Virus record (IMG/VR): IMGVR_UViG_3300028048_001169
Coordinates: 32,001 to 96,000 of that record
Origin: a virus
Taxonomy: Duplodnaviria > Caudoviricetes
Reading direction: 5' to 3' (one strand)
Length of the DNA stretch: 64,000 nucleotides
A program made the position numbers and the translations under genes. Below the pieces are notes generated by a model. That model saw only the letters and a program-made list of their open reading frames with translations. It was not told where the DNA came from and ran no database searches. Each line of letters opens with the position of its first letter. The first letter of the stretch is position 1. Below are positions 42,863 to 43,176 of this stretch, in pieces.

Positions 42863-42946
42863 AAAGCCCACAAAGCTTTCATTCTTGTTAGCCTTTCTAA
42901 AACGAAATATACCCTACTAGGTGTTAAAGCCTAGTAGGAATATTTC
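42863..42946 (+). ncRNA. Candidate small RNA A
   Basis: AACA-ATAAGA-TA promoter at 42852-42863, 5' hairpin AAAGC/GCTTT, pyrimidine-rich anti-RBS segment, terminator; no sense ORF. Confidence 0.5.
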
Positions 42947-43019
42947 AACAGAGTAACGTATTTATATAGAGGCAGTGCAAAGTAAAAGTAACCAAGGTAG
43001 ACAAAATCACTTATACTTT
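42900..43019 (-). ncRNA. Candidate small RNA B
   Basis: AACA-ATATAG-TA promoter at 43030-43019, 5' hairpin AAAGTATAAGTGA/TTACTTTTACTTT, segment complementary to leaders at 37764-37786 and 50797-50820, terminator. Confidence 0.55.
42904..42946. terminator. Bidirectional terminator shared by the two candidate sRNAs
   Basis: GAAATAT..CCTACTAGG-8nt-CCTAGTAGG..ATATTTC. Confidence 0.7.
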
Positions 43020-43176
43020 ACTATATTGTTAGTATTATAATATGAAAAGTCGATAAATAAGAGGTATTTTCATTGTATAAATTGATCGAGAATTCATATT
43101 ATTTTTATTTTTTATCAATATAACTTTTTTATAATGATTAAATTAGCTTTCTCTATGAAGGGGGATAGTTTATAGT

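Follow-up and report, generated by a model that had tools for sequence, protein, structure and literature searches.

A candidate antisense small-RNA family of AR9-like rumen jumbo phages and its predicted early-gene target

Several trans-acting small RNAs of Gram-positive bacteria, among them RsaE/RoxS, LhrC and the hairpins of Staphylococcus aureus RNAIII, carry C/U-rich seeds directed against Shine-Dalgarno sequences. Phage T4 achieves translational repression of early and replication messages with proteins, RegA and gp43, that bind operators. In phages of the AR9 type, recognition of late promoters by the non-virion RNA polymerase depends on deoxyuridine in the template strand of a uracil-containing genome. 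Phage-encoded base-pairing small RNAs are a known kind of regulator, and none has been described before in this phage group. The small RNAs of virulent phages are barely characterised; a few cases in jumbo phages have emerged from transcriptomes, none with a known target (PMC11512511, PMC12197685). ONT-cappable-seq revealed small RNAs of phiKZ-like jumbo phages, such as sRNA005 of phage 201phi2-1 and the small RNA upstream of phiKZ gp182 (PMC11512511). For AR9, the late consensus of the non-virion RNA polymerase was determined experimentally as A(-11)ACA-N6-T(-1)A/G(+1), the last base being the start site (PMC5312081, PMC7598289), and the AR9 report as cited here describes seven late promoters that drive antisense transcription (PMC5312081).

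Anatomy of the minus-strand unit

The stretch of DNA analysed here (the window, 64,000 nucleotides) comprises bases 32001-96000 of a single virus record of 225,070 bp with 33% G+C. The record belongs to an AR9-like jumbo phage of the cattle rumen, and near-identical DNA is present in many cattle gut metagenomes. The family-B DNA polymerase (polB) is just 27-29% identical to the polymerases of AR9, PBS1, phiR1-37 and Staphylococcus S6-like jumbo phages, so that by this measure the phage is only a distant, uncultivated relative of the AR9/PBS1 group. Our own simple gene call of the whole genome yielded 270 genes and 91% coding sequence. The unit described below lies in a gap of 331 bp, bordered upstream by a 351-aa gene (41790-42845, plus strand) and downstream by a 202-aa gene (43177-43785, plus strand). 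Neither flanking gene obtained a family assignment, megablast of positions 41800-44000 against GenBank phages gave no match, and no relatives of the 351-aa protein were found in viral contigs. Searches of Pfam, PHROGs, PDB sequences and the ESM Atlas returned no function for the 307-aa, 202-aa, 351-aa, 196-aa and 42-aa proteins.

The preliminary description of this locus had proposed a minus-strand small RNA with a promoter of the form AACA-N6-TA. This promoter is present (AACAATATAGTA, 43019-43030, minus strand; AACA-ATATAG-TA when read from 43030 to 43019), it fits the AR9-type late consensus and it places the predicted transcription start at 43019. The predicted RNA begins with a 5' stem-loop of 14 pairs and one bulge in RNAfold (RNA bases 1-41, 42979-43019). 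An open stretch follows that is predicted to be single-stranded (RNA bases 42-73, 42947-42978) and holds the anti-Shine-Dalgarno motif CCUC at 42972-42969 with a probability of being unpaired of 0.96. The unit closes with an intrinsic terminator (42897-42946), which consists of an extended hairpin (RNA bases 74-116; core 42939-42912) and a U-rich tail. With the promoter bases included, a stretch of 136 nt has a folding energy of -38.3 kcal/mol (z = -5.2 against shuffles). A terminator consensus scan of positions 42700-43300 detected one site, on the minus strand, whereas shuffled sequences averaged 0.1. Folding and scan thus recovered the proposed series of 5' hairpin, unpaired stretch and terminator. 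The terminator had also been called a shared one: the hairpin is there, but it meets terminator criteria on the minus strand only. A plus-strand motif, AACA-ATAAGA-TA at 42852-42863, just past the stop codon of the 351-aa gene, had been assigned to a convergent small RNA sharing this hairpin. The motif is absent in three relatives (G001, G002 and G003), in which the hairpin almost directly follows the stop codon; the convergent unit is therefore not conserved.

Since a gap of this length would contain about 0.4 AACA motifs by chance, the promoter motif alone proves little, and its behaviour in the genome as a whole has to be considered. Intergenic copies of AACA-N6-T[AG] number 48, and 39 of these face a gene on the same strand compared to nine that do not; the gene-facing copies mostly lie 17-40 bases ahead of the start codon. 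In total the genome holds 274 copies versus 318-529 for scrambled motifs, which makes the motif rarer than six of the seven controls. Relative to the scrambled motifs, which show no orientation bias, it is enriched before genes and depleted inside them. This distribution identifies AACA-N6-T[AG] as a real promoter class in this phage. Early genes are marked by a second motif class, the extended TCATATATTATAA element, and nearly all of its roughly 30 copies have plus-strand orientation. Its consensus, aaaatattttnaRTCATATATTATAAat, is located 50-75 bases before start codons (for example at 60800, 51306, 53600 and 59155 of the window) and resembles the early consensus of AR9 (PMC5312081).

Further elements in the window belong to neither the unit nor its promoter class. 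A variant early promoter, CATATACTAT, is found at 25332, near a tRNA gene (25355-25425, plus strand; 51 bits in Rfam) to which ARAGORN gives no amino acid and a two-base 'anticodon (tc)', suggesting an unusual anticodon loop. Upstream of the 202-aa gene, an element TATAATGA(T/G)T..TAAAT is present at 43100-43145 (plus strand) and also in G001 (L002:3870-3900, plus strand); it may be this gene's own promoter, which would then differ in class from both the early and the late ones.

Parts of the phage are present in four rumen RNA libraries, in unstranded contigs that may be DNA or plus-strand read-through. In run X10 the bin 42808-43291 had a contig depth of 5.4, against 3.1 and 1.0 in the adjacent bins, which in such contigs is at most a weak hint of transcription. 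Many bins of 37000-51500 lacked cover in three of the four runs. In the same region, the longest rumen metatranscriptome contigs and the top contig depth fall on two minus-strand genes of 317 and 645 aa (46909-49880) that adjoin a homologue of a virion structural protein (phrog_3004, 44524-46812); contig depth does not rank expression.

Conservation among related phages

Syntenic loci were retrieved from IMG/VR and JGI metagenome contigs by means of the neighbouring proteins, and the proteins of these loci are only 31-66% identical to those of the window. Besides the window's own genome (G000), the family comprises G001-G005, L058, L063, L064, L072, L078 and L087; L078 is a close variant of G001, and these members represent ten distinct genomes. 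G006 was left out, as it offered 24 promoter-to-terminator candidates and no syntenic anchor.

An antisense AACA-N6-TR motif was found in every syntenic locus that keeps the 202-aa homologue with enough flank (10/10 distinct genomes). In the relatives it mostly reads AACA-N4-AGTAAA. A strong hairpin and its U-rich tail come 60-200 bases downstream of the motif, and this hairpin abuts the 3' end of the upstream gene. The gap that holds the unit lies between two same-strand genes or beside a small inserted gene. We estimate the background for a motif on the right strand and at the right distance at about 0.1-0.2 per locus, and its presence in all ten genomes is consequently very unlikely to be due to chance. 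In 11 of the 12 family members, folding predicts a 5' hairpin that begins only a few bases from the start site; it is formed by unrelated sequences, and L072 lacks it. An open motif of the CCUC, CUCC, UUCC or UCCC type likewise occurs in 11 of the 12 (L063 lacks it) and has a probability of being unpaired above 0.8 in nine; by our estimate, however, chance alone would produce a member of so loose a motif set in about 40% of open stretches with such a base composition.

Between promoter and terminator, most of the sequence cannot be aligned (MAFFT, ten members, 42% mean column identity), and the alignment is too poor for a formal analysis of base-pair covariation; G001 and L078 carry long forms of about 210 bases. 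What is kept in the ten distinct relatives is position and architecture, with the 5' hairpin missing in one, and this bears out the earlier proposal of a discrete minus-strand small-RNA gene. Positions 43019 to about 42897 very probably constitute a conserved small non-coding transcription unit.

The terminator hairpins of the clade form a sequence family of their own (CCCAGTAGGA...TCCTACTGGG and variants), which includes window positions 42912-42939. Hairpins of this family are reused at more than 20 intergenic gaps in G004, and another copy is present in G000 outside the window.

Candidate targets of the open stretch

The open stretch (42947-42978) is complementary to three plus-strand sites, 50797-50820, 37771-37783 and 60842-60866. 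It was scored by duplex energy against the leaders (-40 to +12) of the 270 called genes. The preliminary description had suggested a scan of phage and host ribosome-binding sites versus shuffled controls; on the phage leaders, comparison with shuffles upheld the leader of a 42-aa ORF and left polB at the level of chance.

The leader of the 42-aa ORF (50837-50965, plus strand) follows a late promoter, AACA-TTCCTA-TA at 50786-50797, of which 50797 is the exact predicted +1. From this base on, 50797-50820 is identical to 42948-42971 in 22/24 positions, as the preliminary description had pointed out. The corresponding duplex of -28.0 kcal/mol is the best among the 270 leaders (mean -11.3, sd 3.7), a best score attained by 2/160 plain and 5/160 CCUC-keeping shuffles. 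The ungapped identity of 22/24, again versus all 270 leaders, was reached by none of 2000 shuffled seeds, whose maximum was 21/24. The match is real and far beyond chance. As to the role of the ORF as a target, its leader match is non-random, but no orthologue of it was detectable in any relative, and for this reason it cannot explain the conservation of the RNA across the clade. The match may represent a target specific to this lineage or a paralogous copy of the seed region. The duplex occupies positions -40 to -17 and leaves two bases between itself and the AGGAAG core; it need not act by simply occluding the ribosome. No minus-strand promoter able to make an antisense copy was found inside the ORF. 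In G007, a more distant relative, a small unit of late promoter, CUCCUUCCUUAA stretch and terminator (L026:11265-11360, plus strand) is oriented divergently to the orthologue of a 248-aa gene (49930-50676 in the window), at the same position and in the same orientation as the 42-aa ORF in the window; the seed module may have moved or been inverted between the two genomes.

The second site belongs to the original model, in which the small RNA represses polB along with the 42-aa ORF and thereby exerts post-transcriptional control of replication. The identity behind it is present exactly as claimed: ATTTATATAGAGG occurs at 42960-42972 and at 37771-37783, where it makes a 13-base perfect complement to the seed over the polB Shine-Dalgarno region (start codon at 37795) with matching AACG and AGT on its flanks, and the 12-mer without its last G has three exact copies in the 225-kb genome. 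By duplex energy the polB leader ranks second of 270 (-23.3 kcal/mol), and in G001, too, it resembles the genome's own seed region and comes 2nd among 116 in duplex energy and 4th in co-folding. However, a second-best score of this size was reached by 16/160 plain and 28/160 CCUC-keeping shuffles (10-18% of shuffled seeds), the ungapped identity of 17/24 was reached as second-best in about 7-28% of shuffles, and exact runs of 13 bases were also found between non-cognate RNAs and leaders. In co-folding, polB fell outside the top six leaders in G000, and its ranks in the six genomes of 0.04, 0.03, 0.96, 0.55, 0.09 and 0.43, the last four for G002-G005, combine to z = -1.3. The complement to polB is thus a match at chance level whose pairing is unconserved, polB is probably not a specific target, and control of replication, which depended on it, is unsupported. 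With the 42-aa ORF also missing from the relatives, we regard the original model as unlikely.

The conserved target was sought by ranking all leaders of six genomes by their gain in co-folding energy with the genome's own RNA and combining the 54 orthologue groups present in at least four genomes. The group of the 307-aa gene (60876-61799) came out best of the 54 with z = -4.5, the next group having -2.7. In the window, this gene is preceded by an early promoter core (60800-60809) and a plus-strand leader (60800-60878 with the promoter), and positions 60842-60866 (AACAGAGUA, with UAUAG and AGGAGG) are predicted to pair with the seed. The 307-aa protein itself has no match in Pfam, PHROGs or the PDB.

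The fit of this leader is specific to the cognate RNA. Scored with the seed of its own genome it had duplex ranks of 0.02, 0.038, 0.041, 0.026 and 0.002, whereas with the seeds of other genomes its median rank was 0.36 (Mann-Whitney p = 6e-4). The combined z of the cognate assignment was -4.66 for a group chosen as the best of 54; among all 265 mismatched assignments, in which no genome is given its own RNA, the z of the best group averaged -2.80 (sd 0.47) and 0/265 reached the cognate value. The closest mismatched assignment had z = -4.62, so the margin is real but not large. A generic anti-Shine-Dalgarno probe puts the 307-aa group only 44th of 54, which shows that its leader is not simply a strong ribosome-binding site. 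The paired bases vary by genome (G004, for example, has an exact match of 11 bases, G005 one of 12, and G003 a run of 9 together with AAGGA), and such differences are what co-evolution of seed and target predicts. Seed-target covariation in relatives, which the preliminary description had named as a check, thus spoke against polB and in favour of a different target. In every genome an early-type promoter is located 63-74 bases before the start codon of the 307-aa gene, which makes the action of a late RNA on an early message a coherent reading. Taken together, the leader of the 307-aa gene is the best candidate for a conserved target in these sequence comparisons.

G007 was used as a follow-up, with an ambiguous outcome. 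It contains a similar unit of promoter, CUCCUUCCUU stretch and terminator, but at a different locus, which makes the orthology of this unit uncertain. The leader of its 307-aa orthologue had a rank of 3% with the 51-base pre-terminator RNA and of 12% with a 32-base seed. Two broader propositions were rejected. The seed does not generally fit the leaders of its own genome better than those of other genomes, as this held only for G000 and marginally for G005. Nor does the RNA appear to act on early messages in general, since early and late leaders scored alike in G000, G004 and G005 and differed only in G007 (p = 0.013).

Mode of action and comparison with known systems

Late antisense transcription might instead act in cis, colliding or pairing with read-through from the polB operon and so insulating or silencing the 202-aa gene, with no targets in trans. 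This explanation would suit the constant location of the unit, behind the upstream operon and ahead of the following gene on that strand. Plus-strand read-through is plausible as well, because the hairpin meets terminator criteria solely on the minus strand, and antisense late promoters have the precedent of the seven documented in the AR9 report as cited above (PMC5312081). It leaves unexplained, however, the conserved 5' hairpin, the open anti-Shine-Dalgarno stretch and the cognate-specific fit to the 307-aa leader, and in G004 and G005 other genes intervene between the unit and the 202-aa homologue. We therefore consider an action purely in cis quite unlikely.

The unit could also be a small-protein gene encoding a hydrophobic peptide of about 20 aa, or of 52 aa in the long forms. 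Small frames in the units comprise 21, 19, 13, 20, 19 and 52 codons; those of 19-21 codons in G000, G002, G004 and G005 have hydrophobic products, and the long forms of G001 and L078 hold frames of 24-52 codons with some mutual similarity. Yet these frames use GTG or TTG as start codon and are not preceded by a Shine-Dalgarno sequence, where the real genes of these phages have strong GGAGG sites. The short peptides lack similarity to each other, G003 offers 13 codons only, and by our estimate frames of 20 codons are expected by chance in sequence this rich in A+T. The closest relative, L063, is alignable to the window over the seed and shares a ...UACUCUGUU(G/A)AAAU stretch, and a single-base indel between the two would break the window's frame. 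With frames that are unconserved, devoid of Shine-Dalgarno sequences and disrupted in this comparison, we read the unit as non-coding and hold a small-protein gene to be very unlikely. In the sub-lineage of G001 and L078, the long forms (L002:3646-3804, minus strand, and L078:2879-3097, plus strand) have mutually similar frames of 24-52 codons whose products begin with hydrophobic residues, so that the RNA may have a dual function or a small membrane peptide may be made there. Within the whole window, Rfam 15 gave nothing at gathering score except the tRNA at 25357-25422, and a permissive scan of 42800-43200 returned noise only (at most 20 bits, against gathering scores of 42-110). The unit appears to represent a previously undescribed small-RNA family.

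A functional or ancestral role of the plus-strand copy, either as an operator bound by a protein and shared by leaders or as a relic leader that arose by duplication, with the minus-strand features incidental, is highly improbable. In its favour, all three exact copies of the 12-mer are intergenic and on the plus strand, two of them precede start codons, and several relatives have a GAGG-containing motif past the hairpin on that strand. In the relatives, however, neither a start codon nor a frame comes after this motif, and such a role does not account for the conserved antisense promoter and its AGTAAA start region. A search for RegA-family proteins (PF01818) gave no match in the genome (nor in the control genomes), and the similarity begins exactly at the +1 of the 42-aa leader, which fits selection on RNA better than duplication of DNA.

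Our preferred reading, with a probability of roughly one half, is that the minus strand from 43019 to about 42897 encodes a non-coding RNA of about 115-123 bases which pairs with leaders and ribosome-binding sites of phage messages and belongs to a family in a clade of rumen jumbo phages. Judging from the motifs and their conservation, the phage's non-virion RNA polymerase would read the unit late in infection from the AACA-N6-TA promoter, and the intrinsic terminator would end the RNA. The 5' stem-loop probably stabilises the transcript. The open stretch between the two hairpins, with its pyrimidine-rich anti-Shine-Dalgarno motif, would then pair with 5' leaders and ribosome-binding sites of phage messages, and the duplex would block access of the ribosome or be marked for cleavage. 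Pairing through the open stretch is the most likely mode of action, at close to even odds. If the 307-aa leader is the target, a late RNA would shut off an early protein. We suggest, tentatively, that the small RNA serves as a timing switch whose seed co-evolves with the 307-aa leader and which stops translation of this message once late transcription begins.

Such a switch would do with RNA what RegA of phage T4 and similar repressors do with protein, and we know of no earlier case in which a small RNA of a virulent jumbo phage has a defined phage target that co-evolves with it. As a conserved family with a concrete and falsifiable target prediction, the unit would allow RNA control of the switch from early to late genes to be tested in phages equipped with RNA polymerases of their own. 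The phage being uncultivated, such tests would have to be heterologous or rely on stranded rumen metatranscriptomes. More generally, late promoters of the AR9 type can guide the search for non-coding genes in genomes of uncultivated phages.

The relationship to AR9 is the nearest in promoter type. As in the antisense late promoters of that phage, the motif is AACA-N6-T(A/G) and is oriented antisense to neighbouring genes; what the AR9 report as cited here describes are promoters, not a small RNA that has a seed and is bounded by a terminator (PMC5312081). The DNA polymerases of the two phages are about 28-29% identical, and no homologous unit is known in AR9. With the small RNAs of phiKZ-like jumbo phages, the unit shares its short promoter-to-terminator layout, its occurrence in a giant phage and its conservation by genomic position; those RNAs are mostly derived from 5' UTRs, stem from another lineage with another promoter type, and have detected transcripts and no proposed target (PMC11512511). 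In contrast, the predicted unit of the rumen phages is free-standing, oriented antisense and has a candidate target supported by covariation.

In its composition the unit resembles the anti-Shine-Dalgarno small RNAs of Gram-positive bacteria, with an own promoter, an intrinsic terminator, a length of about 100 bases, no frame and an accessible pyrimidine-rich motif predicted to pair with ribosome-binding sites of the GGAGG type. Unlike these, it is encoded by a virulent jumbo phage and preceded by a late promoter for the phage's polymerase, and its apparent targets are phage messages. It has no relationship to LhrC in sequence or in Rfam, the sole LhrC match of 20 bits (gathering score 110) being on the opposite strand, and in place of the repeated C-rich loops of the Gram-positive RNAs it has a single seed between two hairpins. 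The comparison with RegA and gp43 of phage T4 concerns the regulatory logic. The effector here would be an RNA instead of a protein, and no general preference for early leaders was seen; common to both, as proposed here, is that a product made later blocks the ribosome-binding sites of an earlier message.
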